Virus record (IMG/VR): IMGVR_UViG_3300045747_000454
Span: 52,034 to 116,033 of that record
Length of the DNA stretch: 64,000 bases
Reading direction: 5' to 3' (one strand)
DNA from: a virus
A program made the position numbers and the translations under genes. This document shows, one piece after another, positions 23,643-60,948 of this stretch. How positions within the stretch are numbered: the stretch's first letter is position 1; each line of letters opens with the position of its first letter. The notes below the pieces were generated by a model. The model worked only from the letters and a program-made list of their open reading frames with translations. It made no database searches and was not told where the DNA came from.

Positions 23643-24251
23643 ATGAAAATTCTATCAGAACACCTTGCACCAGCGCAGTCGAAGCTTACCGAAATGCGCC
23701 GCGGCAACGACCTCTACCTGTCTGGCATCATGATGCAGGCTGCGCTGAAGAACGGCAACGGCCGTTGCTACCCGCTCGAAGAGATCTCGAAGGCCGTTGA
23801 GACGGCAAAAACTCGCATCAGCGAGGGCAACTACATCTGCGGTGAGCTCAATCACCCAGACGTGCTGTCGATCAATCTCGCCAACGTCTCGCACGCCATC
23901 GTCGAAGCCAGCATGTCTGGCAATGACGCCATCGGCAAGATGAAGCTCCTCAACACACCGTCTGGCAACATCGCCAAGGGTCTGATCGAAGGTGGCGTTC
24001 GTCTCGGCGTGTCGTCACGCGGCACCGGCAACGTGAACGAAGGCGGCAACGTCTCTGACTTCTCGTTCGTCACCGTCGACATCGTCTATCAGCCATCGGC
24101 ACCAGGCGCCTACCCGAACGTCGTTCACGAAGCGATGGGTTCGAAGAAGGTGATGACCCTCGCCGAAGCCATGGTCCACGATCCGAAGGCGCAGAAGCAC
24201 TTCGCCAAGGAAATCAAGACGTTCCTCGAAGCCCTCAAGCTGAACAAGTAA
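23643..24251 (+). CDS. prohead core protease, T4 gp21-like
   Basis: N.NGR.YP, GELNHP, VSH, TPSG.I, GVSSRG.G, D.V.QPSAP.AY. Confidence 0.95.
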   Translation: MKILSEHLAPAQSKLTEMRRGNDLYLSGIMMQAALKNGNGRCYPLEEISKAVETAKTRISEGNYICGELNHPDVLSINLANVSHAIVEASMSGNDAIGKMKLLNTPSGNIAKGLIEGGVRLGVSSRGTGNVNEGGNVSDFSFVTVDIVYQPSAPGAYPNVVHEAMGSKKVMTLAEAMVHDPKAQKHFAKEIKTFLEALKLNK

Positions 24252-24254
24252 GCC

Positions 24255-24524
24255 ATGGAACACTCACGTCTCCTCCACCTCGCTGGCGTTCCACTCACGG
24301 AAGCCAAGGCCTCATCGCTCAACGACACAGAAAAGAAGTTCGCCGCAGCCGTGCGCGAGTACTTTCTGAACACGCTGAAGGACCGCATCGGCAATCCAGA
24401 CAACGGCTCCGACGTGCTCGTACAGTTTGAAGACGAGTGGGGCGACCTGCCACACGCCGTTGACTTCGTCGTTCGCAGCGTGATGAAGTCTGAAAAGGCC
24501 AGCGTTCGCAAAGAACTCAAATAA
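24255..24524 (+). CDS. small prohead-core-associated protein (N-terminus SRLLHLAGVPLTE)
   Basis: Head operon context; N-terminus paralogous to the next gene. Confidence 0.7.
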   Translation: MEHSRLLHLAGVPLTEAKASSLNDTEKKFAAAVREYFLNTLKDRIGNPDNGSDVLVQFEDEWGDLPHAVDFVVRSVMKSEKASVRKELK

Positions 24525-24542
24525 TCCTAACTAGGAATCATC

Positions 24543-24839
24543 ATGAACCAATCCCGCCTCCTCCACCTCGCTGGCATTCTCACTGAAGCCAAGAAGCCAC
24601 CGATGGACGTGCCAGACATGGACGGCGATGCTGATGACGCACCCGTCGCCAAGAAGGCACCAAAGGGCGACAAGGCTGCTCCAGCCAGCGACGCACCGCC
24701 GACCAAGGCTGAGATCATTCAGCAGATCTGCGATGACACTGGCCTCGAAGAAACCCTCGAGGGCAAGGACTGGAAGAAGGCCTGCAGCGCCATCAAGAAG
24801 GCGTTCGACGCTGGTGTGAAGAGCTGCTCAGCAAAGTGA
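24543..24839 (+). CDS. small prohead-core-associated protein (N-terminus SRLLHLAGILTE)
   Basis: AGGA RBS; paralogous N-terminus. Confidence 0.7.
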   Translation: MNQSRLLHLAGILTEAKKPPMDVPDMDGDADDAPVAKKAPKGDKAAPASDAPPTKAEIIQQICDDTGLEETLEGKDWKKACSAIKKAFDAGVKSCSAK

Positions 24840-31906: not shown

Positions 31907-33778
31907 ATGGCAGACATTACCGCAAAGACAACCCATGACCTTTGGGTTGAGTCACGCGAGTTCTCGCTCAGCATCTCTCGCTCGGCGCCAACCTCCATCA
32001 CAATCACCGTCACTCGACCGGCTAGTCTAACGGTCGTCGACGGCGCGGTGGTGCTGCTCTCTACGAGCCCTATTGCTGCTGCGAACTATCCGACCGACGG
32101 TCGACAGTACACCCCGTCGGTCGACGAGCTCATTCCAGCCGACCGCATCGTCGGTGTTGACGGCGCGCACGTCGTTGGCTCCTACTCCGGCGTTCTCGGT
32201 AGCCCGATGCCGACAGGTACCCTTGATGCAGCGACTGGCAAGGTGTCGTTTGACATCGTGGTCACCAACACTGATGCAACGAAAATCTACTACGCGTCAG
32301 TCCACGGCGTGTCGAACGTTCTTCAGTACTACCCAGTCGGCATTCAGTCGTACCCAATCGAAGGCTCACGCGTTGAGAAGGGCGTCGAGGGCTTCGCTGG
32401 CAACATTCCATCTCTACCAGAGGCGCCAGTCTCACCGACCGAGGGCTTCGTCTATCACGACCAGCAGCTCAATCTCTTTCAGTACTGGACCGGCACGACT
32501 TGGGTCCCAACGCGTGCTGACACCATTCTTACTGGCGACAACTTCCCTGGTGCAATTGGCTACACCTACCTGCTGAACGCTGGTCCGCCGCGCATCTTCG
32601 ACGGCGTCAAGTGGGTCTTCGCCAATGAGACGAACCTTCAGTTTCGCACTGGCGCGACTTGGACTCCGATTCATGGCTACTCAGCCTACACAAAGCTGCC
32701 AGAAGCACCAACCATCGGCGACCTTATCTGGAACTACACGTCACAGCGTGGTCAGTACTGGGATGGCGCTCAGTGGGTTTACCCAGGTCCGAGCAACTCT
32801 CTGTTCGACACTGGGACTGGTCTCATTCCAGCCTTCGTCAATCCACTTGGCATCGAGTTCACGATGCTGCCAACGCCGTACGTTGGCCTGCTGTTCTACA
32901 ACACCACGACCAAGGAGCTGAGCGCTTGGACTGGCACTGAGTGGCGTCGCGCCAACACTGATCAGATCGGCTCACCAATCAGCGACAAGCTGACGGTTGG
33001 TAACGATGGCTCCTACAATGAGCGCATGCGCCTCATCAAGGTGCTGAAGTCGCAGCTCGGCTGGCCGCAGTCGTGCGTCGAGCTCGAGGAGGAGCAGTTC
33101 AACATCGCCATCGACAACGCGCTCGACAACTTCCGCATGTGGTGCGACGGTGCCTATCGCATGAAGTACGTGATGTTCAAGCTGTACAATGGGCAGCAAA
33201 CGTACTATCTGAACAGTCAAGTCGATCAGACCGACAAGATCGTGGATGTCGCCAAGATTCACCGACTGAACATTCTCGGTATCGAAACGGCGAATGGTAA
33301 CGACGCCGTCTGGACATCTGGCATTCTGACGTCATACTACAGCGCCGTGTCTGTCGACATTCTGTCGCTCAACATGCTGTCGATGATGTCGGAAGAGTTT
33401 CAGCGGCTGTTCGCTGGTGACCTTACCTTCCTTTGGGATGAGCCGAGTCGTGAGCTGTTCGTCACGCGCAAGATCTATCGCGACGAGAAGGTCATCGTCG
33501 AGTGTCTGATGGAGCGGACGGAGCAGGAGATTCTGGTCGACCGTTGGAGCAAGCAGTTCATTCAGAACTGGGCCTTGGCTGAAGCCAAGTATCAGCTCGG
33601 CATGATTCGTAGTCGCTTCAGCTCTGGCACGCCAGGTGCTGCCGGCACCATCACGCAGAACGGTGAGCTGCTCATCACTGAAGCTCGACAGGACATGACT
33701 GAGCTGAAGCAATCGGCGCTCGACTTCGAGTGGGGTGGACACGTTGGTCACGGCAACGTCAGCTTCCTTTTTGGATAG
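31907..33778 (+). CDS. neck protein, gp13-like, with long N-terminal extension
   Basis: C-terminal LGWP...VELEEEQ..IAIDNAL...WALAEAK.QLG.IRSRF..PG..G.ITQNG..L..EA; N-terminal P..G..Y...W.G..W repeats. Confidence 0.88.
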   Translation: MADITAKTTHDLWVESREFSLSISRSAPTSITITVTRPASLTVVDGAVVLLSTSPIAAANYPTDGRQYTPSVDELIPADRIVGVDGAHVVGSYSGVLGSPMPTGTLDAATGKVSFDIVVTNTDATKIYYASVHGVSNVLQYYPVGIQSYPIEGSRVEKGVEGFAGNIPSLPEAPVSPTEGFVYHDQQLNLFQYWTGTTWVPTRADTILTGDNFPGAIGYTYLLNAGPPRIFDGVKWVFANETNLQFRTGATWTPIHGYSAYTKLPEAPTIGDLIWNYTSQRGQYWDGAQWVYPGPSNSLFDTGTGLIPAFVNPLGIEFTMLPTPYVGLLFYNTTTKELSAWTGTEWRRANTDQIGSPISDKLTVGNDGSYNERMRLIKVLKSQLGWPQSCVELEEEQFNIAIDNALDNFRMWCDGAYRMKYVMFKLYNGQQTYYLNSQVDQTDKIVDVAKIHRLNILGIETANGNDAVWTSGILTSYYSAVSVDILSLNMLSMMSEEFQRLFAGDLTFLWDEPSRELFVTRKIYRDEKVIVECLMERTEQEILVDRWSKQFIQNWALAEAKYQLGMIRSRFSSGTPGAAGTITQNGELLITEARQDMTELKQSALDFEWGGHVGHGNVSFLFG

Positions 33779-33847
33779 CGAACCTAGGAACATTTTAGCT
33801 GCCGTCTGAAAATGGTGTACTATACGCTATTACAGACGGGAGCTAAA

Positions 33848-34663
33848 ATGCGAGCGGACCAACGCCAATACCACATCATCTACAAGACCACTTGCCTCAC
33901 AACAGGCAAGTGGTATCTCGGGATGCATTCAACTGATGACCTCAACGACGGGTATCTTGGTAGCGGGCAACTTCTCTGGAAGTCGCTCAAGAAGTACGGG
34001 AAGGACAATCATCAATACGAGATTCTAGAGTATCTGCCATCTCGAAAAGCGTTGATCCTTCGAGAAGAGGAGTTGATCACCGACGAAGTCAGAAATCAAC
34101 CGCAGTGCCTGAATCTTCGCAACGGCGGGACAGGCAATGACCCTGGATTCTGGGAGATGACGGACGAGGACAAGCGCACCCAAGCTAGCGAGCGTCTATC
34201 TGTCAAGAGCAAGAAGATGTGGGCGGAACGCAAAGCGGACCCAATCGCACTTGCTGAGCACATTGCCAAAGCTATTACGCCTGAAAGCATTGGCAAACGA
34301 GCTGCTACTACCAGAGCTAGAGCTCACAAGCGAACACCAGAGCAGCTTGCCAATCTTACTACTGGGCAACAGAGCTACTACGCTAACGTTGACCCGACGG
34401 TGCTAAAGACACGTGGGCAGAAGGCAGCTCAAACACGTCTAGAGCGAGGCACCAACAAAGGCGGACGACCGAAAGGTATCCCAGCGACTGAGTCGCAGAA
34501 GCAATGCAAGACCTGGATCATTCAGACCGAAGATGGCGCCAAACAAGTCATTCGCAATCTCAAGGCGTTCTGCGAAGAGCACAACATCAGCAGAACGTCG
34601 TTCGTACGTTCTGCCAGTAATGACAAGTTTATGAACGGATTCAGATTGGTTGGACCCACTTGA
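33848..34663 (+). mobile_element. free-standing GIY-YIG (Seg-like) homing endonuclease
   Basis: IIYKTTCL.TGKWYLGMHST..L.DGYLGSG..L..KKYG...E..LI...CLNL..GG; atypical codon usage; GGGAG RBS before ATG 33848. Confidence 0.9.
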
Positions 34664-34707: not shown

Positions 34708-36567
34708 ATGCCAACACCATCTTGCCCCGACTCAGTCGGCAGCGTCAACACACCGAACTCCACGGCGATCCCCGTATCGCCAACGAACCCGGCGCGGGCG
34801 TACGTCGCTCCAGCGCTGAACATCGGGACCTACTCTCTCACCGACGCCTGCTCGAACCTTGACTCGAAGTATCAAGAGGACGTCGCAGCAGAGAACCTCA
34901 ATGTGTCTGGTGCACCGGTCAACGTCTTCAAGCTGCTTGGCATTCACGAGCAGGGCAAGCTCATCGACCTCACTGGGACCGGCGCGCCACTCGGCAGCGG
35001 TGCTCCAGATCAGGCGTTCGATGCGCTTGCTGGGTCGTGGATCAGCGCTGAGACCGGTGCTGCCGTGCTTGAAGCGCCAGCCTACATCGGCTACGACTTC
35101 GGCGCTCGTCTCACATCATTCGGACAACCAGAGACGGTGCCGGCCCCGAACATTCAGCTGCACGTCACGTCCTTTCGCATTCAACAGGGTTCAGACCCAG
35201 CCACTCGCGCCCTTCAAGTTCGCATCGACCGAAGCCACGGTGGCTATCGCGTTGACCCACTGAAGGTCAACTTCACAGGCGTTGGCAATGGTGGCTTCGG
35301 CAGCTTCAGCGCTGGCGTTGAGGCGAAGCCTGGCACGCTGATGCTGGCTGCTCTCTCGCCAACGCAGTTCAGCGTCTTCTTCACGGGCAGCGCTGGCACC
35401 GTGGTGCTTGGCGTCGCCACCGTTGGTGTGCGCTTCAACTCAACGATCTGCTCGTTCACTCTCACGACTGGGTCAATCCCATACGATGTCAATGACCTCT
35501 TCACCGTAGTCATCGAGCTCGAGTGGCTGCGAGTTGACGTCGTCAATCTACCGAACCTCGCTACACCAGCCCTCATTCGCGTACGTCAATCATCGCAAGC
35601 TCGCTACTGGCGCGTTGTGCCGTTGAGCTTCGCTGGCGTGCTGAGCAATCAACCTTGGGTCGTTGAGAAGCTCGAGCTGTTCGACTTTCAGCAGACGCGC
35701 CTCGACGACATTCAAGATAGTCTGTACATGGAAAACCGTGACCGCGACTACGCCAAGGCGTCGATGCAGCTCAAGGCAGCGTACACACCGTTCGACGCCG
35801 TCAGCGACCTGTCGAAGTTCGGCTTCAGCATCGCCGACATCTACACCTTCACCACCAGCTTCGCGCAGATGGTCGCCACGCTTGGTCGTCCAATCGTTGT
35901 TGGCGATGTGCTTGAACTGCCAGGCGAGCTTGGCTTCGACCACAACCTCAAGCCAGTGCGCAAGTTCCTTGAGGTGTCAGACGTGAGCTGGAGCGCTGAG
36001 GGCTTCACCACGAACTGGCGTCCAATCCTCTATCGCTTTCAAGCGCAGAACCTGATCCCGTCGCAGGAGACACGCGACATTCTCGGCACCGCCGACACGC
36101 AGAAGTACATCATCGATGATGGTTCATTCTTCGCTGGCATCGAGCAGATCTCGACGGCCGACCTTACTGCCGCCGAGCGTAATCAAGCTGAAGCGGTCGA
36201 TGCTGTGCCTGAGAAGGGCACGAACGTTCGTGAGGAGGCCTCTGGCACGAATCGCTTCGGGCAGCCTGGCTCCTATGATGGCGTTGGTGTCTACGTTGAG
36301 GATGGTCTGCCGCCAGATGGCAAGCCATACGAGACTGGCTTCAAGCTGCCAGACGTTGGTACCGGTGTGAACGGATCCTTCTTCCGTCTTGAGTACGATC
36401 CGAAGCTCAACATTCCAGCTCGCCTCTACAAGTTCTCGAGCATTAAGGGCAAGTGGATCTTCGTTGAGACTGACCGTCGCACCGCTCGCTCAGCGCATCG
36501 TCCATCGCAGCTTGAGATTCTGAATCGCACGACCACGATGCCGCTCAACACTAAGAAGCCAGTCTGA
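34708..36567 (+). CDS. neck protein, gp14-like, with inserted domains
   Basis: E.L.V.GA.V.V.K.LG; IQD.LYMENRDRDY; DLSKFG; LGRPIVVGDVLELP; TAAATA at 34680-34685. Confidence 0.8.
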   Translation: MPTPSCPDSVGSVNTPNSTAIPVSPTNPARAYVAPALNIGTYSLTDACSNLDSKYQEDVAAENLNVSGAPVNVFKLLGIHEQGKLIDLTGTGAPLGSGAPDQAFDALAGSWISAETGAAVLEAPAYIGYDFGARLTSFGQPETVPAPNIQLHVTSFRIQQGSDPATRALQVRIDRSHGGYRVDPLKVNFTGVGNGGFGSFSAGVEAKPGTLMLAALSPTQFSVFFTGSAGTVVLGVATVGVRFNSTICSFTLTTGSIPYDVNDLFTVVIELEWLRVDVVNLPNLATPALIRVRQSSQARYWRVVPLSFAGVLSNQPWVVEKLELFDFQQTRLDDIQDSLYMENRDRDYAKASMQLKAAYTPFDAVSDLSKFGFSIADIYTFTTSFAQMVATLGRPIVVGDVLELPGELGFDHNLKPVRKFLEVSDVSWSAEGFTTNWRPILYRFQAQNLIPSQETRDILGTADTQKYIIDDGSFFAGIEQISTADLTAAERNQAEAVDAVPEKGTNVREEASGTNRFGQPGSYDGVGVYVEDGLPPDGKPYETGFKLPDVGTGVNGSFFRLEYDPKLNIPARLYKFSSIKGKWIFVETDRRTARSAHRPSQLEILNRTTTMPLNTKKPV

Positions 36568-37223
36568 TGCTCCTACAAGAACTCACAGTCAAAGACACCA
36601 AGGATCCAGAGGACATTCTCAAGATCCTTCGGCGAGACTGCAAGCCGTTTCTATCGTCTGGTCTTTCGCATCCATTCTATCGTGGTCTGCCACGCGCCTT
36701 TGCCGGTAAACAAACCCCGATCATCACGCTCGAGTACGATCTGAAGGAAGTGCATCTGATCAAGATGACGCGTCAGCACGATCGGTTGCCTACTGGCACG
36801 AACCCAGCCGTTCACGACCTGTTCGACACGCTGTTCAACTCAAAGTTCGGTTGGAAGGCTCGATCGTCTGGCGTCTTCGCCTCTGCCGAGTGGGCTCAAG
36901 CCAACGGCTATGGCATGCCATTCGCCTTCTTTCCAATCGGCAACTTTCACTCGCTCTGGTCGCCTGAGGTCTACGATCTGTTTGCAGCGCTGCCACGCGG
37001 GCTCGAGACGATGATCGTCCACGGCAGCTCTAAGGAGAAGGTCGAGGGCAAGCTGCGGTTGCGCCACTACTTCGACACGCTCGACTATCATGCGGATGAT
37101 CTGAAGAGCCTCGGCGACGACCATCGCGAGGTGATGTTTGACTGCGACAGCTACTATCTGGTTGATGCTCATAGCAAGTGGGACGAGACTGACCATCCAG
37201 TGCTCAAGGAACTTTTCAAATGA
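36567..37223 (+). CDS. array-1 paralogue 1, putative ADP-ribosyltransferase-fold internal head protein
   Basis: FYRG / GVFAS..QANGYG..FFPIG / REVMFDC; leader MLLQEL. Confidence 0.6.
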   Translation: MLLQELTVKDTKDPEDILKILRRDCKPFLSSGLSHPFYRGLPRAFAGKQTPIITLEYDLKEVHLIKMTRQHDRLPTGTNPAVHDLFDTLFNSKFGWKARSSGVFASAEWAQANGYGMPFAFFPIGNFHSLWSPEVYDLFAALPRGLETMIVHGSSKEKVEGKLRLRHYFDTLDYHADDLKSLGDDHREVMFDCDSYYLVDAHSKWDETDHPVLKELFK

Positions 37224-37879
37224 TGACCTTCAAGGACTTTATCGCCGAGGACATAGTGCCGAACATGCCGCTGGCGCAGTATGTCAAGATGCGCTGCGCA
37301 CCGTACCTCAAGCTGCCGGGCGCTACGTCTGGTCTGCTGTTTCGTGGTCTTGGGCCGTTTGGCACCTCGTCTAAGGAGAAGATCAACGGCACCGATGTCA
37401 AGTGGAAGGTCGTCACCGCTCGCAAGAACCGTCCGGCAGGCGACACGCCGCAGGAGTTCTCAGACGAAGCAGACAAGTACTTTCAAGAGATGTTTGGTTG
37501 GAAGGCTCGTGGCGACGCGACGTTCGTATCTGGCAACATGTTTCAAGCCGGCAACTACGGCGACGTTCACATCGTCATTCCAATGGGCGAGACGAAGTTC
37601 GTTTGGTCGCCAAAGCTCGTAGACCTGTACACCGAAGTCTTCATAAAGCTCTTTGGGCGCTATGGTCCAAAGAGCAACAAGGACCCAGAAGAGCATGCCA
37701 AGTTCATTGAGGCAATCAAGAAGGCGAACTACATCGACACCGATCTGACGAAGGCTATTAAGTCTAAGCACGAGATCGCGCTGAACTGTCAGCGCTACGT
37801 CGCCATCGACATATCAAAGGTGCCAGCGCACGGTCGCTGGGACATCGCTGGCGCAATCGGAATCAAGAATCAAACATGA
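37220..37879 (+). CDS. array-1 paralogue 2, putative ART-fold internal head protein
   Basis: LFRG / ATFVS..QAGNYG / HEIALNC; leader MMTFKDFIAE. Confidence 0.6.
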   Translation: MMTFKDFIAEDIVPNMPLAQYVKMRCAPYLKLPGATSGLLFRGLGPFGTSSKEKINGTDVKWKVVTARKNRPAGDTPQEFSDEADKYFQEMFGWKARGDATFVSGNMFQAGNYGDVHIVIPMGETKFVWSPKLVDLYTEVFIKLFGRYGPKSNKDPEEHAKFIEAIKKANYIDTDLTKAIKSKHEIALNCQRYVAIDISKVPAHGRWDIAGAIGIKNQT

Positions 37880-38514
37880 AGCTGCGCGACCTCTTCGAGG
37901 ACCAACAGACTCTTGAGCAAGCTCTCAAGGACTGCGAGCCATATCTCAATCTGCCTGGCGCTAAGAACGGCATGCTGTTTCGTGGCATGCGCAACCTCAG
38001 CTTCGACGACTACAATCGTGATATGGCGACTGGCACTCGCTGGTTGAACTTCAAATCTCGGCGTAATCGTCTGCCATCTGACACGCCATCTGAGTACGCA
38101 ACTCTCGCTGACGACGTGTTTCACGAGAAGTTCGATTGGTACCCACGGACCAACGGCACGTTCGTCACCGGCAATCTCAAGGATTCTCGTGAGTACGGGA
38201 TTCCGCACGTCGTCATTCCAATCGGGCCGACGCGCTACGTCTGGTCGCCGAAGGTCAAGGATCTGTTCCTTTGGCTCACTCAAGGGCTAGGGCTGTACAC
38301 CGCGATGGCGGAGATGGCAGAGGACGAGCGGCACGCCTTCTTCACAGCCGAGCTCAAGAAAGCCGGCTACAAGGACACCGATCTTGGAGCTGGCATCCCA
38401 AGTGGTCACGAGATCATGCTCAGCTGCGATAGATACATAGCCGTCCGCTGTGATGGCGGCGAGTCTGGCATCATGGCTGCCGTCTACGAGCTAACCGACA
38501 TCGAACCGGACTGA
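37876..38514 (+). CDS. array-1 paralogue 3, putative ART-fold internal head protein
   Basis: LFRG / GTFVT..SREYG / HEIMLSC; leader MKLRDLFE. Confidence 0.6.
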   Translation: MKLRDLFEDQQTLEQALKDCEPYLNLPGAKNGMLFRGMRNLSFDDYNRDMATGTRWLNFKSRRNRLPSDTPSEYATLADDVFHEKFDWYPRTNGTFVTGNLKDSREYGIPHVVIPIGPTRYVWSPKVKDLFLWLTQGLGLYTAMAEMAEDERHAFFTAELKKAGYKDTDLGAGIPSGHEIMLSCDRYIAVRCDGGESGIMAAVYELTDIEPD

Positions 38515-38516
38515 GC

Positions 38517-39167
38517 ATGAAACTACAAGATCTCTTTGAATGGCAAGAAACGCTTGGATCGGCGCTGAGGTCTAACTGTGGCGCCTATCTCAAGGCGCCA
38601 GGCGCTCACGCCGGCTTTCTGTTTCGTGGCATGCGCGCCAATCAGCTCGCACGGTACAACGAGGACAATGAAACTGATCTGAAGTGGACCATTCTTCAGA
38701 CTCGCAAGAATCGCCAGCCGTCGGATACGCCAGACGAGTTTCACGAGCTGGCAAACGAGTTCCTTCTTCAGAAGTTTGGTTGGAAGCCACGCACTGATGG
38801 TGTCTTTGCGACGAGCAGTCACAAGGAGGCTAATGGCTACGGTTTGCAGCACGTCTTCTTTCCAATCGGTCCTGTCGACTACATCTGGTCGCCGCACGCC
38901 CATGATCTGTACGTCAACATCTACCACGACATCCTGGCGCATGGTCCGAACAGCGCGCTTGATGATGACGAGCAGCACAAGATCTTTCTGAAGGCGCTTG
39001 AGAACGCGGAGTATCAAGACTGGGGTCTGAGCTACGCAATTGAGAAGGGTCATGAGATCATGTTCAACTGCGACCGTTATCTCGTTGTTCGCTGTGGTTC
39101 CAACGAGAAGGATGAAGTGCTTGAAAAGCTCGCCGAGCTAACTGGGATCGACCATGAAGCTGAGTGA
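38517..39167 (+). CDS. array-1 paralogue 4, putative ART-fold internal head protein
   Basis: LFRG / GVFATSS..ANGYG / HEIMFNC; leader MKLQDLFE. Confidence 0.6.
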   Translation: MKLQDLFEWQETLGSALRSNCGAYLKAPGAHAGFLFRGMRANQLARYNEDNETDLKWTILQTRKNRQPSDTPDEFHELANEFLLQKFGWKPRTDGVFATSSHKEANGYGLQHVFFPIGPVDYIWSPHAHDLYVNIYHDILAHGPNSALDDDEQHKIFLKALENAEYQDWGLSYAIEKGHEIMFNCDRYLVVRCGSNEKDEVLEKLAELTGIDHEAE

Positions 39168-39753
39168 CCTCTTTGAAGATGACAGCGAATCGCTTGAGGA
39201 CGCCATCAAGCTCTGTCAACCGTACCTCTCAATGCCTGGCGCCAAGACCGGCTTGCTCTGGCGTGGCGTCAACACAGAGGACGATCGCTTTCAGCGAGAT
39301 GAGCAGGACGACGGCACGGTTATCTCGTGGGGCATCTTCAACCGTCGAAACTATCGTCAGCCGAAGTCAACACCACTCGAGTACTCTGAGGCTATGGACG
39401 AGGTCTTCAAGAAGGAGTTTGGTTGGAAGCCTCGTCAGCAGGGCGTCTTCGTCACTGGCTCGCGTGGGCACGCATCTGGCTACGGCAAGGAGTACGTCTG
39501 CGTTCCTATTGGTCCGACGCGCTTCGTGTGGTCTGGCAATGTTGAAGACCTGTTCATCATTTGCCAGAACTTTCGCGAGCGACAGGGCGACTCCGTTGAG
39601 AAGTTCAAGAAGTTCCTCCTGACGCTTGATTACATCGACACTGATCTATCGCGCGCCATCAAGTCGCATCACGAGATCATGCTCGACTGCGATAGCTATC
39701 TGCTGCTGTACACCAACGATCGTAGCAAGATCAAAACGCTACTAGGCATGTAA
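39154..39753 (+). CDS. array-1 paralogue 5, putative ART-fold internal head protein
   Basis: LWRG / GVFVT..ASGYG / HEIMLDC; leader MKLSDLFE. Confidence 0.6.
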   Translation: MKLSDLFEDDSESLEDAIKLCQPYLSMPGAKTGLLWRGVNTEDDRFQRDEQDDGTVISWGIFNRRNYRQPKSTPLEYSEAMDEVFKKEFGWKPRQQGVFVTGSRGHASGYGKEYVCVPIGPTRFVWSGNVEDLFIICQNFRERQGDSVEKFKKFLLTLDYIDTDLSRAIKSHHEIMLDCDSYLLLYTNDRSKIKTLLGM

Positions 39754-40415
39754 TGATTCTACAAGACCTCTTCGAAGCAAAGGCGACCATCGCCTCAACC
39801 ATCGCTCGCTGCAAGCCATACCTCAGCATGCCTGGCGCCAAGACCGGCTTGCTGTATCGTGGCATCGAGCTGTCGTGGAAGGACTATCGCCACGAGGAGG
39901 TGACGCTGCCAAGTGGTGAGGTCATCGCCATTGACTGGACGATTCTGAAGCGTCGAGTCGGTCGTGAGCCGACCGCAACGCCACACGCGTACGCTTCTGC
40001 GGCTGATGACTTCTTCAACGAGAAGTTTGGTTGGCGCTGTCGGTCGGCTGGTACGTTTGCAACTGGGTACGAGCTTGAGACCGGCATCTACGGCGACACG
40101 CACATTTTTCTGCCGATCGGCAAGACCCGCTTCGTGTGGTCAGACTTCGTTCGCGACATGTACGAGCTGGTGAACAAGATTCGAATGTCGCCAAAATTTA
40201 GCAACCTCAATGATGACGAGCGCATGAAGGCTCTCGTCGAAAAGCTTGAGAGCTCTGACTACGTCAGCAGCGGTCTGGGTGATGCTATTCGTTCGCGCAA
40301 GGAGATCATGGTCGACTGCGGCAGCTACATTGCTGTTCTGGTTGACCGAAACAGCACTACCGTGAACGATGTGGCAACCCGTAAATACATCAAAGACCTG
40401 ACTGGCATCTCATGA
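39753..40415 (+). CDS. array-1 paralogue 6, putative ART-fold internal head protein
   Basis: LYRG / GTFAT..TGIYG / KEIMVDC; leader MILQDLFE. Confidence 0.6.
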   Translation: MILQDLFEAKATIASTIARCKPYLSMPGAKTGLLYRGIELSWKDYRHEEVTLPSGEVIAIDWTILKRRVGREPTATPHAYASAADDFFNEKFGWRCRSAGTFATGYELETGIYGDTHIFLPIGKTRFVWSDFVRDMYELVNKIRMSPKFSNLNDDERMKALVEKLESSDYVSSGLGDAIRSRKEIMVDCGSYIAVLVDRNSTTVNDVATRKYIKDLTGIS

Positions 40416-41092
40416 ACCTACGAGACCTCTTCGAAGTTAAGAAGCCTGCGCTTCATCCATCTGAGCTCGGCGACCTACTTGCCGCCGATGCTGGGAAGTA
40501 TCTCAACACTGCTGGCGTGAAGACAAGCTTTCTGTACCGTGGTCTGACCGTCCCGCTTCAGAGCTACACGACCGAGGAGATCGACGGTAGCGAGGTGTCG
40601 TGGATCATCATGGACGCACGCCGTGATCGCGAACCCGTGAGCACGCCGAAGGCGTTCTCTAACGCCGCTGACGCCTACTTCAATCAGCACTTTCGTTGGA
40701 CGCCACGCCGCGATGGCACCTTCGCCGTCAAGAACCTCAGTCTCGCTCGCGACTACGGCGAGGGTAACATCTTCATTCCGCTCGGCGACTTTCGCTTCAT
40801 CTGGTCTGAGGACATTGCCGACCTCTACATCGCCTACGATGAGATCAAAGAGGACTGGTATGAAGCCAACCTGTCGAGAGACGAGATGATTGAGAAGTGG
40901 GTCGAGTATCTTGACACAGCTGGCTACACCAATCAAGACCTTGGGCGCGCTATTGCATCTGATCATGAGATCATGTTCGACTGCAATCAGTATCTGCTCG
41001 TTCATCTTCCGCTGTCTCGTGGTCCGAACGGTGGCACTGCTGTCGCTAAGGTCATGACCGCCCTCACCGGCATCAAGTACGGATACAAATGA
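40412..41092 (+). CDS. array-1 paralogue 7, putative ART-fold internal head protein
   Basis: LYRG / GTFAV..ARDYG / HEIMFDC; leader MNLRDLFE. Confidence 0.6.
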   Translation: MNLRDLFEVKKPALHPSELGDLLAADAGKYLNTAGVKTSFLYRGLTVPLQSYTTEEIDGSEVSWIIMDARRDREPVSTPKAFSNAADAYFNQHFRWTPRRDGTFAVKNLSLARDYGEGNIFIPLGDFRFIWSEDIADLYIAYDEIKEDWYEANLSRDEMIEKWVEYLDTAGYTNQDLGRAIASDHEIMFDCNQYLLVHLPLSRGPNGGTAVAKVMTALTGIKYGYK

Positions 41093-41877
41093 TCTCTAAC
41101 TACCACTTTGACAATCAGCTGCGCGCTTACATGCTGCAGTTCGTCAGCATCTTCTACGGACTGCAGGTGCAGACTGGCAAGGGCGAGTGCGATGAACCTG
41201 AGTTCATTCAAGTGCCAGTCGTCATCGGCAACAAGGACAAGGTCGTTGCTGCCATCATGACTGGCAACACCAACAATCGGTCGTTCGCGCTGCCGCTGAT
41301 GTCTGCTCACCTCGTCTCACTTGCACAGGCGCCAGAGCGCCGCAAGGTGCAGGCGTACGTCGACCAGCGCGTCACGATGAAGGCTGGTGGTGTGTTCCCA
41401 GATGACCTGACGGTTGTCAAGCGCGCCATGCCAATCCCATACAACATGACGCTCGAGCTGTCCATCTACGCCTCGAACATGCAGCAGCGCGATCAGATTC
41501 TCGAGCAGCTGCTGGTGCTGTTCAACCCAGACCTGCAGATTCAAAAGAGCGATGGACCATTCGACTGGACGAAGTTGACGAAGGTCGAGCTGACCGACAT
41601 CAGCAACGAGGAGAATTATCCGACTGGCACTGACAAGCGGATAATCACCTGGACTCTAATGTTCGAGGTTCCAATCTATCTGAGCATTCCAATGGGCGTC
41701 AAGGACGATCTGGTGCGCCGCATCACGATTCGCATCGGCGACCTTGACAGCATGCAGATTGGCGTCGTTGATGAGAACGGTGAGATTCTGCCGTTCGGCA
41801 CCGTGCTGACCACGCTTGACATCACGACTCGCGACCCGTCTGGTCCGACACCATTCCCACCGACGCCACTGCCATGA
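41089..41877 (+). CDS. tail terminator / sheath stabiliser, gp15-like
   Basis: Y.FD.QLR.Y..QF..IF; VPV..G; LP.MS; PIPYNMT.ELSIYA.N..Q..QILEQ.L.LFNP. Confidence 0.88.
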   Translation: MISNYHFDNQLRAYMLQFVSIFYGLQVQTGKGECDEPEFIQVPVVIGNKDKVVAAIMTGNTNNRSFALPLMSAHLVSLAQAPERRKVQAYVDQRVTMKAGGVFPDDLTVVKRAMPIPYNMTLELSIYASNMQQRDQILEQLLVLFNPDLQIQKSDGPFDWTKLTKVELTDISNEENYPTGTDKRIITWTLMFEVPIYLSIPMGVKDDLVRRITIRIGDLDSMQIGVVDENGEILPFGTVLTTLDITTRDPSGPTPFPPTPLP

Positions 41878-43421
41878 TCACCTTTCGTCAGTATCTAGAA
41901 GAGCGCTCGATGAGCGCAACTGAGCTTGAGAAGGTCGCGACTCGGCACGCCAACACTGCGAAGATCGGCTTCGAGTTCGAGTTCGCCCTGCCGCCTGGAC
42001 ATCGCCTCATCTCCGCCGAGAGCAACGAGATGCGCGACACGGCAACGCTCGACGAGTTCGATGACATGGAGGAGCTGCTGCACGCTCTTGGTGCTGCTCG
42101 CCGAGACTTCAGCAGCTTCAACAGCGCCTACAACGATTGGAAGGAAGAAGCTCAGAACCTCTGGGTTGATGAGAACTGGAACGCCTATAACGAGAATGAT
42201 GAAGATGAGGGGCGCAGCGAAGCGTTGGATTACTACGAACGCAGAGAAGCTGAAGGCATGACCGAGCTCGAGTTCGTCAAGAGCGAGTATGGCAGTCGCC
42301 TTGAGATGCTGGCTCACTTTGGCGTGTCGCCAGACCACGGCTGGAGCGACGAGCGCAACAACGACCGATCAGCCTTCTACACCTCGCAAGCATCTGAGGA
42401 CGATGAGAAGTTCACGCACGAGCTTGTCGCCAAGGAGCTGCACAGCGACCTCGGCGTTGACATCGTTGTCCCAGCAATTGAACCACACGAACCGTCGACG
42501 CAGTGGATGGTGGTGCCAGATGGTTCAATCAGCGGTGGCAGCGGCGTCGAGGTCGTTTCACCACCGTTGCCGCTGAAGGAAGGTCTTGAGAAGCTTGCTG
42601 AGATGTTCGCGTGGATGAAGAGCCAGTACGTCATCACCAACGCGAGCACGGGCTTTCACATCAACGTCAGCACGCCAAATCTTTCGAACCTCGACCCAGT
42701 CAAGCTCATCGTCTTTCTCGGTGAGAAGCACGTGTTGACACAGTTCAATCGGGTGCTGAACACCTACACATCGCAGCAGTCTGAGCGCATCATCAACTCA
42801 GTCGGCTCATCAGGCAAAATGCCGAAGGAGGCGCAAGCGCTCATCGACCTGGCAAAGTCGGTGCTGTCCAATCAGAAGTACTCGTCGGTCAATCTGAGCA
42901 AGCTGGCGCACGGCTATCTTGAGTTTCGCATCGTCGGCAACGAGAACTATCACAAGCGCCTGAACGAGGTTCGCTCAGCCTCGCTGCGCTTCGTCTCAGC
43001 GCTTGAGGTCGCCTGCGACCCTGACGCCGAGCGCAAGCTGTACCTGAAGAAGCTGGCAGCGATGATGGACCTCGGTACGACGCGCGACCACAACGATGAC
43101 TTCGACAATCGCCCAATCACCGACATTCTCGACATGGCGAGCGAGAACAATCTACCGTATGACCAAATGATGGAGATGGCGAAGAAGGGCAACGTCACGG
43201 CAGTGCAGCGCGGCAAGGCGGTGAACTTCATCATCAACATTCTGATGGAGCAGCTTCACTCTTCATTTGTCTCACTCGGCATCAAGCATCCAAGCGCGCG
43301 CCACCGTGCTGAGCTGAAGCTGCTGCTGAAGCGCCTTGGAGTGACAACGGATGACCTTCACGCGGTGGCAGACAGACCTGAAAGTACCCTCAACCTTCGT
43401 TGGTTCTTCGCCGAAAAGTGA
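41874..43421 (+). CDS. amidoligase (COOH-NH2 ligase) family enzyme with capsid-targeting-like leader
   Basis: IGFEFE, DGSI, EVVSPP, NASTGFHINVS, KY.SVN, LEFR; leader MITFRQYLEE. Confidence 0.8.
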   Translation: MITFRQYLEERSMSATELEKVATRHANTAKIGFEFEFALPPGHRLISAESNEMRDTATLDEFDDMEELLHALGAARRDFSSFNSAYNDWKEEAQNLWVDENWNAYNENDEDEGRSEALDYYERREAEGMTELEFVKSEYGSRLEMLAHFGVSPDHGWSDERNNDRSAFYTSQASEDDEKFTHELVAKELHSDLGVDIVVPAIEPHEPSTQWMVVPDGSISGGSGVEVVSPPLPLKEGLEKLAEMFAWMKSQYVITNASTGFHINVSTPNLSNLDPVKLIVFLGEKHVLTQFNRVLNTYTSQQSERIINSVGSSGKMPKEAQALIDLAKSVLSNQKYSSVNLSKLAHGYLEFRIVGNENYHKRLNEVRSASLRFVSALEVACDPDAERKLYLKKLAAMMDLGTTRDHNDDFDNRPITDILDMASENNLPYDQMMEMAKKGNVTAVQRGKAVNFIINILMEQLHSSFVSLGIKHPSARHRAELKLLLKRLGVTTDDLHAVADRPESTLNLRWFFAEK

Positions 43422-45450: not shown

Positions 45451-46089
45451 ATGAAGGTCACTGAACTATTCGAAGCCTACTCAGTTCTGCCAAAGCTTGA
45501 GAACATTGGAACCATCGGCGTCAAGCAGGCTGGCAACGTCTACACCGTGTCAGCCAGCGCCAAGTCAGGTCCCATCGTGGCCGGCATCATGAGCGTTTGC
45601 AAGACGCTCGGCAGCAAGAAGGGCTACACGCTCAAGACCCTCACTGGCAAGGTCATCGACCAATCGGTGCTGTTCAAGCTCTATGACACTCGCCCATACG
45701 GCGTGAAGGTCGTGTCCGACGAGCCGAACGCCGCCGAGGTGATTCAGAAGGCAGCGGAGTCCGCTACCGCTGGAGTCATCTCTGACTTCAAGAAGATGGT
45801 GCAGCACAAGAAGGACGCGCCGAAGCGTAAGGCTGAAGCGTCGAAGTACGCTGCCGCTGGTCGCCGTGAAGACATGAAGAAGTACGACGAGCTCTACGGC
45901 AAGGGTACTTGGAACCGTGTCACGTACAAGCAAGAAGGTGGCGACGACGGCTATCAGTACGTCGTGCGCGTCGATGGCAGAGTGATTGACAATGGTCTCA
46001 CGCTGTCTTCAGCCAAGTACGAGAAGCGTGAAGCGGTCAAGCGTCTCGCCAAGAAGGAAGGTCTGGGAACCTTCGGGAAGAAGTCATGA
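45451..46089 (+). CDS. basic hypothetical protein with leader MKVTELFE
   Basis: Late promoter, GGAG RBS. Confidence 0.75.
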   Translation: MKVTELFEAYSVLPKLENIGTIGVKQAGNVYTVSASAKSGPIVAGIMSVCKTLGSKKGYTLKTLTGKVIDQSVLFKLYDTRPYGVKVVSDEPNAAEVIQKAAESATAGVISDFKKMVQHKKDAPKRKAEASKYAAAGRREDMKKYDELYGKGTWNRVTYKQEGGDDGYQYVVRVDGRVIDNGLTLSSAKYEKREAVKRLAKKEGLGTFGKKS

Positions 46090-46433
46090 AGGTAACTGAA
46101 CTATTCGAAAGTCTGGCACCAGGTCAAGCGGCTTGGAAGGCTGAGATGACGAAAAAGGGAGCCGTCAAGTTCAAGCGCGACGAGCACGGCGGTGGCGCCG
46201 TTGATCGCATCGTCGCCTACAACGAGGCTGGCAAGGTCGTTGGTGGCTTCAATCTGAAGGCACGCGTCGCCGAAGGCGTCAAGGACAACTCCGAGAAGCT
46301 GGCAACGCTGAAGCGCCGCCTTCGTGAGCTGACAACTGACTTTCACAACATGGGCTACACCTTCGGTGAGGCTGAGCGCAAGCTTCGCGTCAAGCAGATC
46401 AAAGACGAGATTGCCGAGATCGAGGCGAAGTGA
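46086..46433 (+). CDS. hypothetical protein with leader MKVTELFE
   Basis: Same 8-aa leader as the upstream gene; ATGA overlap. Confidence 0.75.
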   Translation: MKVTELFESLAPGQAAWKAEMTKKGAVKFKRDEHGGGAVDRIVAYNEAGKVVGGFNLKARVAEGVKDNSEKLATLKRRLRELTTDFHNMGYTFGEAERKLRVKQIKDEIAEIEAK

Positions 46434-46993
46434 TCACCTTCAAGCAGTTCCTCGAAGAGGAAGAACGAACCATCCACGCCAAGAAGATCAAGGACGCAAA
46501 GCCTTGGTCTGCTAAGCTGGCTGAGGGCGACTACACCATCGGTGACGTCACGTTCAGCGCAGCCAATGGTCTTGGCGCGGTGCCGTACAATCAAGAGGTC
46601 AACTACTTCGGCTTCGTCGGGATGACAAAGCCATCAACGTTTCTAGAGCTCGCTCTGCCGCACGACGGTCAGCGTGAGCTTGACGCGAGCAACATTCAGC
46701 GGCTGATTGAGGAGGGCTACGCGTGTGGCATTCCGTTCATGCAGCTTCGACTGAACGACGAGGGTCTGCCACGCATCGAGGGGCATGAGGGTCGAGCTCG
46801 CATGATTGCCATTCAGAAGATTCTCGGCGATCAACCAATCCCAGTTCACTTTCTGCTGATGAACGGACTGCGCTCGAAGAACCTGACGCCAGAGCGTCTC
46901 GAAGCTATTCGGGATGGCATCGAGTCTGAGAACGGCAGCAAGTACGTTCGACATCCATTCTCACGAATCTACGTCAAGGGCGAAGCCGCCTAA
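46430..46993 (+). CDS. ParB/sulfiredoxin-like domain protein with leader MITFKQFLEE
   Basis: P..FL.LA...I...IEEG...GIPF.....RIEGHEGRARMIAI..I.GD..IPV. Confidence 0.6.
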   Translation: MITFKQFLEEEERTIHAKKIKDAKPWSAKLAEGDYTIGDVTFSAANGLGAVPYNQEVNYFGFVGMTKPSTFLELALPHDGQRELDASNIQRLIEEGYACGIPFMQLRLNDEGLPRIEGHEGRARMIAIQKILGDQPIPVHFLLMNGLRSKNLTPERLEAIRDGIESENGSKYVRHPFSRIYVKGEAA

Positions 46994-52317: not shown

Positions 52318-52769
52318 TGGCACATCAAGGTCGCTTCATTCCAAAGAACCCGCAGAAGTACGTGGGGCGCAGCACGAACCAAATCATGTTTCGGTCGTCG
52401 TGGGAGTGCGCCTTCATGAAGTGGCTCGACACCAACAATGCCATTCTGCGCTGGGGTTCAGAAGAGCTCGCCATTCCGTACGTGCATCCCTTTGACGGGC
52501 GCATGCATCGGTACTATCCAGACATGGTCATCATGTACATGGACACGACCGGCGCGGTCAAGCGCGAGATCATCGAGATCAAGCCGCACAAGGAAAGCGT
52601 TGTGACGCCAAAGATGACCGATCGCGATCGTCAAGCGCTCATGATCAATCAAGCAAAGTGGAAGTACGCCGCTGAGTACGCCGAGAAGAACGGCGCAGTC
52701 TTTCGCGTGCTCACTGAGCAAACCATGTTCAAGCAAAAGCCGAAGAAGGCAGTAGGAGCAGCAGTATGA
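52317..52769 (+). CDS. head completion protein, T4 gp4-like (TnsA-type nuclease)
   Basis: GRF.PKNPQKY.G; FRSSWE; W.SEE..IPY; RYYPD; IEIKP; NQAKW; F.VLTE. Confidence 0.93.
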   Translation: MAHQGRFIPKNPQKYVGRSTNQIMFRSSWECAFMKWLDTNNAILRWGSEELAIPYVHPFDGRMHRYYPDMVIMYMDTTGAVKREIIEIKPHKESVVTPKMTDRDRQALMINQAKWKYAAEYAEKNGAVFRVLTEQTMFKQKPKKAVGAAV

Positions 52770-53053
52770 AGGTCAATGAACTACTCGATGAAGGTTGGGC
52801 GAGCAAGACAGCGATGATCGCTGCGCCATTCGCTATCGCCGTTGGGACTGCCTACGTTGCGCCAAAGGCAACGATCGACGGCAACACCTACGACAAGACA
52901 ACGATCCACATGATGGACAAGGCAAAGGACCTCAAGCACGGCGTGACCACGCTGCACGGCAAGAAGGTCAAGGTCGTGTACGGCACCGTCACGTCGCAAG
53001 CAAAGGGTGGTCCACGCGACATCAAGGTCTACGCAGTGAAGGACGACCAATGA
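52766..53053 (+). CDS. small protein with leader MKVNELLDE and a hydrophobic segment
   Basis: AGGAG RBS; ATGA overlaps at both ends. Confidence 0.65.
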   Translation: MKVNELLDEGWASKTAMIAAPFAIAVGTAYVAPKATIDGNTYDKTTIHMMDKAKDLKHGVTTLHGKKVKVVYGTVTSQAKGGPRDIKVYAVKDDQ

Positions 53054-53520
53054 GCGACGTTCGCACTCTCGGCAAGGTCAAGATTACCAACCCATTGGAT
53101 GATCTCTTCAACACGCTGCCGAACGATCTCGAAGAGGCGGACAACTACGTTGGCGTCACTGAGGGTGAGCTCGCGGTAGCGCAGGGCAACGATGGCACCG
53201 CGGTCGTCGAGAAGGACGACGAGGACATCGAGATCGATCGCAAGGTCGATGAGGTCTACGAGGCAGCCATCGGCGCCTTCAACACGCAGACCGCCTACCT
53301 CGAGGTCATCGAGCCACGCTACGCCGCTCGCAACGCAGAGGTCGCCGCTAACTATCTGAACATCGCGCTGAACGCAGCGTCGGTGCGCGCCAAGGTCAAG
53401 GGTGATCGCAAGAAGAACGCAGCGTTCGTACCGTTCTCAAACAACAAGACAAGCGGTGCGGTCGTCGCCTCGCGTGAAGATCTGCTGCGCATGATGGCAA
53501 CGGACGCGGAGCTGAAGTGA
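53050..53520 (+). CDS. putative terminase small subunit (gp16-like)
   Basis: EPRY.AR..EVA..YL..AL.A...K and C-terminal VVASREDLLRM; start ATG 53050. Confidence 0.6.
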   Translation: MSDVRTLGKVKITNPLDDLFNTLPNDLEEADNYVGVTEGELAVAQGNDGTAVVEKDDEDIEIDRKVDEVYEAAIGAFNTQTAYLEVIEPRYAARNAEVAANYLNIALNAASVRAKVKGDRKKNAAFVPFSNNKTSGAVVASREDLLRMMATDAELK

Positions 53521-54425
53521 TCACGTTCAAGCAGTTCCTTAGCCTCGGCGAGGCTATCATCAAGCCGTGGGAGCAGTTCTCCGTTGAGACGGAGAAGGCT
53601 GTCGGCATGCTGAACTCCTCGCATCGTGATGGTCTCAAGGCCATCACGACCGGCGGGCTGCTGTTCCGCGGGTTCAAGGAGCTCGGCGTTGAGCGTGGCT
53701 CGATGGCGATCGTCGATCCATCGAAGGGCGAGCGCACCTCACGCGACTCGAACAACATGTATCAGCTCGCGATGGATCGCTCTGCTGCGCTGAAGGATTA
53801 TCCGTCTCGCAGCAAGGCGCTCATCTGCTCGACGAGCGCCTACGACGCTCGCCACTACGGTACGCCGTACGTCATCGTGCCAGTCGACGGTACGAAGATT
53901 GCGGTGTCGCAGTCTGAAGACTTCGCAACTGAGACGTTCATGAAGGGCAGCTTCACCTCGTCCGTTGAAAGCTTCAGCACGCTGCTACGGCGCGTCGCTG
54001 AGCAACTCAAGATTGATCACCGCGGTGATGGCAAGTTCACTGATGCTGATGCGCTCAATCGTGTCTTCGACTCTAAGACGCCTGAAGAGATCGCTGAGGC
54101 ATTCGACTCGTACAGCTACTGTGTGATATCGAAAGAAGATTTGATCGACTTCTTTGAGAAGCACAAGAAGAATCGCTTTGACGCGATCGCCACGTTCAGC
54201 TTTACACCAGCGACGATCAGCACTCGCCTCGTCGAGTACGGCGAGAACCTTGAACCAATCTACGACTACGAGTGCTGGCTCAGCGCGCGCTGCATGGCAA
54301 TCCCGTGCCCGATGTTCGGCGACATTCTGAATCGACTTAAGGAGCAGAGCTTCCCGATTCACGCTAAGTACAAGACGATGATGGAAAACGGAATCTTTCC
54401 AAAGATGATTGGGCGACAAGAGTGA
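53517..54425 (+). CDS. array-2A paralogue 1, putative ART-fold internal head protein
   Basis: LLFRG / RTSRDSNN.YQL / RS..LICSTS...A.HYG / ECW; leader MITFKQFL. Confidence 0.62.
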   Translation: MITFKQFLSLGEAIIKPWEQFSVETEKAVGMLNSSHRDGLKAITTGGLLFRGFKELGVERGSMAIVDPSKGERTSRDSNNMYQLAMDRSAALKDYPSRSKALICSTSAYDARHYGTPYVIVPVDGTKIAVSQSEDFATETFMKGSFTSSVESFSTLLRRVAEQLKIDHRGDGKFTDADALNRVFDSKTPEEIAEAFDSYSYCVISKEDLIDFFEKHKKNRFDAIATFSFTPATISTRLVEYGENLEPIYDYECWLSARCMAIPCPMFGDILNRLKEQSFPIHAKYKTMMENGIFPKMIGRQE

Positions 54426-55291: not shown

Positions 55292-55293
55292 CT

Positions 55294-60915: not shown

Positions 60916-60948
60916 AGTAAATAGGCGATGCCTACAAACACCGACACC

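Follow-up and report, generated by a model that had tools for sequence, protein, structure and literature searches.

Why should a phage carry seven similar genes in a row, each for a protein of about 200 amino acids (aa), immediately upstream of the gene for its tail sheath stabiliser? The question is raised by a stretch of viral DNA of 64,000 nucleotides (nt), positions 52,034 to 116,033 of the IMG/VR record IMGVR_UViG_3300045747_000454, which was analysed as a whole and is referred to here as the window. The gene array occupies positions 36567-41092 of the window. The answer that we regard as moderately probable is that each array gene encodes a T4-type targeting leader joined to a very divergent domain of the ADP-ribosyltransferase (ART) fold, and that the products would be cleaved, packaged in the head of the array's own phage and injected into the host, where they would act on their targets as enzymes using nicotinamide adenine dinucleotide (NAD+). 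To our knowledge, Alt of phage T4 is the one well-studied case of a head-packaged ADP-ribosyltransferase.

The array consists of seven translationally coupled plus-strand open reading frames (ORFs) of 199-226 aa. All but one of the junctions between them overlap, by 1-14 nt, and copies 3 and 4 are separated by a gap of 2 nt. At the upstream border, the 619-aa ORF and copy 1 have a single base in common, and at the downstream border the overlap of copy 7 and the gp15 gene is 4 nt long. The encoded proteins can be aligned end to end with 22 invariant columns, and their pairwise identity is 23-43%. When a joint profile was compared with each copy, the expect values (E) ranged from 1e-78 to 1e-93, and nothing in the rest of the 116-kb contig scored better than 8e-5. 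The seven ORFs are true paralogues, with a similarity far beyond chance, and an earlier annotation made from the DNA letters and their translations (hereafter the sequence-only reading) was right to describe them as tightly packed paralogues. Its list of shared motifs held in part: [FYW]RG and E[IV][MA]..C..Y occur in all seven copies, and the other motifs show small deviations, namely a shifted spacing of R..R.P..TP in copies 1 and 2, Ser for Ala before YG in copy 3, and DM for DL in copy 6.

The first of the two modules lies at the N-terminus. A strict T4-like leader (MKLxDLFE, MILQDLFE, MNLRDLFE or MMTFKDFIAE) is present in six of the seven copies. Copy 1 starts with the looser MLLQELTVKD, which still has L-x-E, so that the capsid-targeting-like leader which the sequence-only reading had assigned to every copy is strict in six and loose in one. 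In T4, the capsid-targeting sequence MKTYQEFIAE directs whatever protein is fused to it into the head and receives a single cut from the prohead protease (PMC8442874). Paralogue 2 has nearly the same leader, MMTFKDFIAE, and the N-terminus of T4 Alt, MELITELFDE, is similar to the array leaders. Across the family such N-termini recur, for example MKTFKQFISE and MITFKQFLSE. We observed the leader pattern within the first 12 residues of 23 ORFs of the contig, compared with 4 internal matches in 91,842 residues of six-frame ORFs. The leader is also found on unrelated proteins (an amidoligase, a P-loop kinase and several small ORFs). At the same time, it is missing from the five domain copies of P0001, a metagenomic protein, in each of which the match to the family profile starts at position 11-12. 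Its presence on unrelated proteins, its mostly N-terminal position and its absence from the P0001 copies together indicate that the leader is a separable, modular address tag. Moreover, it is kept across phages of 37% and 55% guanine plus cytosine, which suggests that the constraint acts on the protein. By analogy with T4, a gp21-type protease would be expected to remove the leaders after (L/I/F)-x-E. With the leaders, the gp21-type protease gene of the contig and the detection of homologues in virions (below), the view of the array proteins as T4-style head-packaged cargo is well supported.

Further leader-tagged ORFs lie at 45451-46993, 52766-53053 and 60928-62076. They begin with MKVTELFE (twice), MITFKQFLEE and MKVNELLDE, and gave no family match where scanned; among them, MITFKQFLAE stands at an internal Met of a 382-aa ORF. 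The leader of the amidoligase suggests that an enzyme of the peptide-ligase type may also be head cargo. P0001 itself is 2,645 aa long, its domain copies cover residues 686-884, 1726-1898, 1924-2117, 2156-2355 and 2375-2638, and there is a weak GNAT match near residue 1600.

The sole experimental evidence for the family comes from Agrobacterium phage Atu_ph07, which has ten tandem homologues, gp54-gp63 (numbers counted from coding sequence 70, the primase/helicase, and checked against the published masses). Six of these belong to the same subfamily as the array (E 1e-39 to 2e-46) and four to a second subfamily described below, and the leaders of all ten read M[RK]W.QL[TN]E. In the virion proteome of Atu_ph07, determined by mass spectrometry, gp54-gp63 were all detected, the number of unique peptides per protein being 3-15 (PMC6102473, Supplementary Table S5). 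This supports the view of the family as virion cargo. The same phage has a 778-aa protein under the name of a Zeta-toxin domain protein, which was assigned to gp53 from its length and mass and was a structural match to the model of paralogue 4.

The second module is the domain that follows the leader. AlphaFold2 modelled paralogue 4 from an alignment of 141 homologues with a mean predicted local distance difference test score (pLDDT) of 94.1 and a predicted template modelling score of 0.89. The core of the model has six strands (β1 36-39, β2 96-99 followed by a helix, β3 110-117, β4 121-124, β5 181-184 and β6 187-192) in the order expected from the reference description of the ART core (PMC9503650). 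The model was then aligned exhaustively with 48,161 representative chains. The best match was 2AUA, the protein BC2332 (Z 6.2, 133 aligned residues, root-mean-square deviation (rmsd) 4.0 Å), ahead of Arr (Z 4.9), DarT (Z 4.4), diphtheria toxin (Z 4.2) and AvrPphF-ORF2 (Z 4.0); these were followed by cholix toxin, PARP15, a PE-like toxin, exotoxin A, a further DarT entry and PARP1. Proteins of the ART fold make up about 29 of the best 50 entries, and re-alignment of the Foldseek candidates agrees. BC2332 is placed in the ADP-ribosylation superfamily of SCOP (PMC3000352), and DUF2441, its Pfam family, in the ART clan (PMC7955679). An independent model of a protein from a second array in the window, built on a different alignment (pLDDT 90.1), gave 2AUA (Z 5.4), Arr (5.1), diphtheria toxin (5.0) and cholix toxin (4.7) as its best four, top matches that it shares with the paralogue 4 model. 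In the ESM Atlas, the nearest named cluster was a viral DUF2441 cluster by features (score 0.84, a lead only) and a PARP domain by structure. Judging from the models and the sequence comparisons below, the array domain is probably a new, divergent ART-fold family outside both Alt/Mod and DUF2441.

ART enzymes carry a triad of His or Arg in β1, Tyr or Ser in β2, and Glu, Asp or Gln at β5. In the numbering of paralogue 4, the residues invariant among the 141 diverse homologues (alignment A4) are R37, R66, R92, G109, P116, D130 and E180, and all of them are kept in the seven window copies. At least 90% conservation was found for C21, G38, P68, D80, F87, F97, Y108, G118, W124, S125, Y166, L171, C185 and Y188. 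Strand β1 of the model contains R37, as part of the motif L-[FWY]-R-G; F97 and T99 belong to β2, which precedes the helix that carries A..YG, and E180 stands directly before β5. Placed by strand, the triad would therefore consist of the invariant R37 and E180 with F97 (99% of the 141 sequences) and Thr or Ser at position 99 (67%). The catalytic skeleton of the seven copies thus comprises the β1 Arg, the β2 Phe and Ser/Thr (Val in paralogue 7) and the Glu before β5, in addition to two invariant Arg and one Asp. Two Cys are likewise conserved, in 93-95% of the family: C21 in the N-terminal helix and C185 at the fifth position behind the catalytic Glu. The two might be joined by a disulfide or bind the same ligand.

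The second array of the window holds eight distant homologues of 254-302 aa and one P-loop kinase, all with leaders. The homologues form two sub-groups of four, with leaders MITFKQFL.E or MxLxELxE, and share a canonical S-T-S motif. Comparison of the first-subfamily profile (A4) with that of the second-array type (A6) by hhalign gave a probability of 98.6% (E 1e-15) over the first ~136 columns. Judged by this profile match, the second-array proteins are a distant sister subfamily of the first-array family. Among 111 sister sequences, R73, R98, D135 and E252 are invariant, the β1 Arg (R51) is conserved in at least 90%, and the aligned counterpart of the S-T-S motif in the first subfamily is T99-S100-S101. 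PHROG 12810 (788 positions) spans both the ART-like domain and the kinase.

Several observations weigh against packaged ART-fold enzymes in the array. At the sequence level, the Pfam models of the ART clan matched none of the seven paralogues, the 141 homologues or the eight second-array proteins at E up to 10. In hhalign comparisons with an alignment of T4 ModA/ModB (A5), the family alignment A4 reached a probability of 8.4% and alignment A3 one of 0.6%. Position 99 is Ser or Thr in only 67% of the members and Val in paralogue 7. An ExE or QxE motif was not found in the family: two positions ahead of E180 the members have G, K, R, H, E or N, with Glu in only 11 of 141 sequences. At the structural level, Foldseek found nothing significant in the PDB for either model (the best row for paralogue 4 was 2AUA, E 0.2), and all structural Z scores are low (at most 6.5), within a range that the tool warns may be fortuitous. 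As for packaging, the array proteins are mostly acidic, unlike the basic internal proteins of T4, and the detection of family members in virions comes from Atu_ph07, another phage than the array's own. The Atu_ph07 preparation was purified with polyethylene glycol only, and the list of detected proteins also has a RecA-like protein, a single-stranded DNA-binding protein and terminase (PMC6102473). Since it includes such replication and packaging proteins, the detection is not strict proof of packaging. Despite the low Z scores, the structural result carries weight because two models agree and one fold dominates the list. The ART call of the sequence-only reading, which had rested on motif spacing only, is thus strengthened in its structural part, as both models match ART folds best and R, S/T and E fall on β1, β2 and β5, whereas no sequence profile matches and the Z scores are low. 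Likewise, of the AlphaFold and Foldseek comparison that it had proposed, the Foldseek part gave no significant match, but exhaustive alignment ranked ART folds first for both the paralogue 4 and the second-array model.

Comparison with the Mod proteins also bears on the more specific suggestion of the sequence-only reading, that the array proteins resemble the R-S-E enzymes of the T4 Alt type. This comparison covered the ModA/ModB family, relatives of Alt. The best local hhalign alignments (4-8% probability) pair E180 with the second Glu of ExE, without significance, and a forced global profile alignment was meaningless. With an hhalign probability of 8% and no ExE motif, membership in the Alt/Mod (R-S-ExE) clade is not supported, and the proposed link did not hold as a specific relation. 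Membership in the DUF2441 family is not supported by sequence either: the PF10386 hidden Markov model had no match in the contig (E limit 10) or in three related phage records, Atu_ph07, RsoM2USA and the L008 contig (E limit 1). Profile searches against PDB sequences returned chance matches only (aIF2-alpha, E 0.19).

If the array proteins are packaged ART-fold enzymes, the following course of events can be proposed. The array genes would be translated along with the late neck and tail genes, and the N-terminal leader, 8-10 residues ending in (L/I/F)-x-Glu, would work like the T4 capsid-targeting sequence and bring the proteins into the prohead core, where the gp21-type protease of the phage would trim it. 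The mature proteins, each a predicted ART-fold domain of ~200 residues, would remain in the head and exit with the DNA. In the host, at the first moment of infection, they would most likely carry out NAD+-using modification of host or nucleic-acid targets, or hydrolyse NAD+. As the helical region between β4 and β5 varies, the copies probably differ in target.

What such enzymes act on could differ from what Alt acts on. They might be packaged ART-fold enzymes that are not of the Alt type and that modify nucleic acids or phosphate-bearing small molecules, as DarT, Tpt1/KptA and RES-type proteins do, or they might be NADases that blunt NAD+-dependent defences. The three invariant Arg and two conserved Asp beside the catalytic Glu suggest a phosphate-rich substrate, the best structures are BC2332, Arr, DarT, diphtheria toxin and Tpt1 and not the R-S-E toxins of the C3, cholera-toxin or Alt kind, the ExE motif is lacking, and there is a linkage to P-loop kinases through the gene inside the second array, PHROG 12810 and the Zeta-toxin name of Atu_ph07 gp53. 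Nevertheless, we rate this version as rather unlikely, for the conserved Arg also bind the phosphates of NAD+ in ordinary protein ARTs and nothing direct speaks for any one substrate.

The enzymatic nature of the domain could also be doubted altogether. T4-type leaders, the presence of homologues in virions, the many paralogues per genome and the lack of a sequence match to any ART family would all suit non-enzymatic internal head proteins, which fill, organise or protect the DNA or serve as anti-defence decoys, as T4 IPI-III or the inner-body proteins of phiKZ-like phages do; in giant phages, families of internal head proteins reportedly have many paralogues per genome. The ART-like fold would then be a mere scaffold. 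This explanation is improbable in our view: the invariance of Arg, Asp and Glu in 141 and 111 very diverse sequences is unexpected for a filler, the proteins are acidic and not of a basic, DNA-binding kind, and the domain occurs in five fused copies in P0001, a protein of the polyvalent effector type. The remaining alternative, that the ART resemblance is coincidental and that the proteins have a new α/β fold with unrelated chemistry, or are late assembly factors not delivered to the next host, could draw on Z scores below 8, Foldseek E values of 0.2 or worse and the meaningless global alignment to Mod. It appears quite improbable, since, among 48,161 chains, two independent models from different subfamilies have their four top ART-fold matches in common, ARTs make up most of the best 50 entries for the paralogue 4 model, the conserved residues lie on the canonical ART strands, and homologues are found in virions.

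The interpretation as packaged ART-fold enzymes would extend to a very large family. With an E cut-off of 1e-3, a profile search of 1.84 billion representative proteins yielded 5,548 clusters, defined at 50% identity, of which 3,994 remained at a cut-off of 1e-10; the proteins are nearly all 190-230 aa long. No Pfam model matches any of the seven array proteins, and the two PHROGs that do, 11975 and 15932, are both labelled 'unknown function'. Megablast of the array against GenBank phages gave no match. We found no paper describing the family, in a search that did not reach the supplements of two surveys by the Aravind group, which might class it as ART.

The related-locus search, made with alignment A1, gave three loci. 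In the related viral contig L006 the array has the same order, and four orthologous pairs are 67-96% identical, with a ratio of nonsynonymous to synonymous substitution rates (dN/dS) of 0.08-0.28; the orthologue of paralogue 1 is 88% identical (dN/dS 0.23), and paralogue 2 has a dN/dS of 0.08. Another phage contig (L007/L008) carries three copies of the first subfamily and one of the second. In a maximum-likelihood tree, copies 2-7 of the window form one clade (support 92/95) with copy 1 apart, the Atu_ph07 copies branch separately, and terminal branches have a length of about one change per site. The position of the Atu_ph07 copies on branches of their own implies that the expansion there was independent. 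The long branches, the 23-43% identity and the low dN/dS together indicate old expansions in separate phage lineages, kept by purifying selection. A recent gene accordion was ruled out by this divergence, the branch lengths and the dN/dS of the orthologues. Thus, the gene-accordion claim of the sequence-only reading has to be replaced by an old and stable expansion.

We put forward only tentatively, as a possibility that we hold to be on the unlikely side, the wider proposal that the family is an unrecognised ART clade (R-[S/T]-E with an invariant Arg-Arg-Asp) and a major injected head cargo of T4-related jumbo phages, which expanded independently into batteries of 4-15 enzymes, each with a different host target at DNA entry. 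Nucleic acids, nucleotide-based defence signals and also proteins would be plausible targets of such a clade. The more general reading as a T4-type tag with a divergent ART-fold catalytic domain already gives a testable interpretation to a family of more than 5,500 clusters that lacks a Pfam model and is of 'unknown function' in PHROG. The family has been amplified into arrays in several lineages of jumbo phages, and its members were seen in the virions of one. If the activity were confirmed, it would account for some of the 'dark' proteins in the virions of Rak2-like and XacN1-like jumbo phages, and a natural set of enzymes with different targets would become available for studying how phages take over the host and counter its defences at the very start of infection.

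Features of the window discussed in the text. Positions count from the first letter of the window; the slash in a leader follows its closing Glu.
Feature	Position	Strand	Remarks
T4 gp21-type prohead protease (Peptidase_S77)	23643..24251	+	PF03420, E 3.2e-25; phrog_207, E 2e-53
gp13-like adaptor Ad2	31907-33778		upstream of the array
Possible GIY-YIG (SegE-like) homing endonuclease	33812-34663		weak Pfam match, E 0.001, below cut-off; follows the gp13-like adaptor, ahead of the next neck-region gene
Paralogue 1	36567..37223	+	218 aa; most divergent; loose leader MLLQE/LTVKD; E 1.7e-78 against the family profile
Paralogue 2	37220..37879	+	219 aa; isoelectric point 9.2; leader MMTFKDFIAE/D
Paralogue 3	37876..38514	+	212 aa; leader MKLRDLFE/D
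Paralogue 4	38517..39167	+	216 aa; leader MKLQDLFE/W; copy chosen for the structure model
Paralogue 5	39154..39753	+	199 aa; leader MKLSDLFE/D
Paralogue 6	39753..40415	+	220 aa; leader MILQDLFE/A
Paralogue 7	40412..41092	+	226 aa; leader MNLRDLFE/V; Val at the β2 Ser/Thr position; without the N-terminal conserved Cys
gp15 tail sheath stabiliser	41089..41877	+	T4 gp15 homologue, PF16724, E 3.5e-36; directly downstream of the array
Amidoligase_2 enzyme	41874-43421		PF12224, E 5.6e-10; follows gp15; leader MITFRQYLEE
Second array	53517-60915	+	eight distant homologues and one P-loop kinase
Leader-tagged P-loop protein (zeta-toxin or polynucleotide-kinase-like)	57020-57784		interrupts the second array

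The genome that holds the array has a T4-type head module. A T4-type portal and a major head protein are encoded in the window together with the prohead protease, and the tail sheath gene lies downstream of gp15 and the amidoligase. The 619-aa protein just upstream of the array matches PHROG 11591, a 'virion structural protein', and showed no similarity to T4 gp14 in BLASTP. The location between gp14-like and gp15-like genes given by the sequence-only reading is therefore well founded on the gp15 side, and the gp14 label is positional only. Between the prohead protease and a putative scaffold, at 24255-24839, there are two small paralogous ORFs of 89 and 98 aa, starting with MEHSRLLHLAGVPLTEAK and MNQSRLLHLAGILTEAK; neither has a PHROG match, and they may encode prohead core proteins.

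By gp15 similarity, the closest sequenced phages are the jumbo myoviruses RsoM2USA, XacN1, Xoo-sp13, Atu_ph07 and PA5oct, and CheckV estimated the contig at ~32% of a genome, which together indicate that the contig is a fragment of a T4-related jumbo phage. The T4 late promoter TATAAATA does not occur within the window. Scans for sigma-70 promoters and terminators stayed at background level, and none stands out inside the array. The lack of a promoter or terminator inside the array implies that it is read together with the late neck and tail genes, and the overlap of the paralogue 7 stop with gp15 ties it to the late structural operon.

The best-known system with which the array can be compared is T4 Alt. 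The N-terminal leaders are of the same type (MELITELFDE in Alt, MKLxDLFE in the array), and a gp21-type protease and a late structural gene context are common to both, as are the ART fold, predicted for the array, with an Arg in β1 and a Glu before β5. Alt differs in its length of 682 aa and combines an R-S-ExE domain with a long N-terminal region, whereas the array proteins have ~200 aa and a single Glu. Moreover, T4 has one Alt gene, plus alt.-1 and alt.-2, which duplicate part of its start in truncated form, compared with seven copies in the array and fifteen in the window when the second array is included. The internal proteins of T4 provide another parallel, in the leader of paralogue 2 and in being small, non-essential-looking head cargo encoded by multiple genes. 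However, the T4 proteins are non-enzymatic, one of them (IPI) being an inhibitor of a restriction enzyme, and highly basic, whereas the array proteins are mostly acidic and have enzyme-like invariant residues.

BC2332 of the DUF2441 family (PDB 2AUA) is the best structural match of both models (Z 6.2-6.5 and 5.4, over 127-133 residues with an rmsd of 3.6-4.0 Å), but the identity in the structural alignment is 8-11%, PF10386 does not match, and the function of BC2332 itself is not known. The array of Atu_ph07 is of the same family (E down to 2e-46) and is likewise tandem, with both subfamilies and with leaders ending in L-x-E; it adjoins a primase/helicase gene instead of neck genes, and its copies are about 250-490 aa long. 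Finally, ART domains are reportedly predicted by Iyer and Aravind in polyvalent virion proteins, and the string of five domains in P0001 fits this concept of injected multi-effector proteins. In the window, by contrast, every domain is encoded by a gene of its own and has its own targeting leader.

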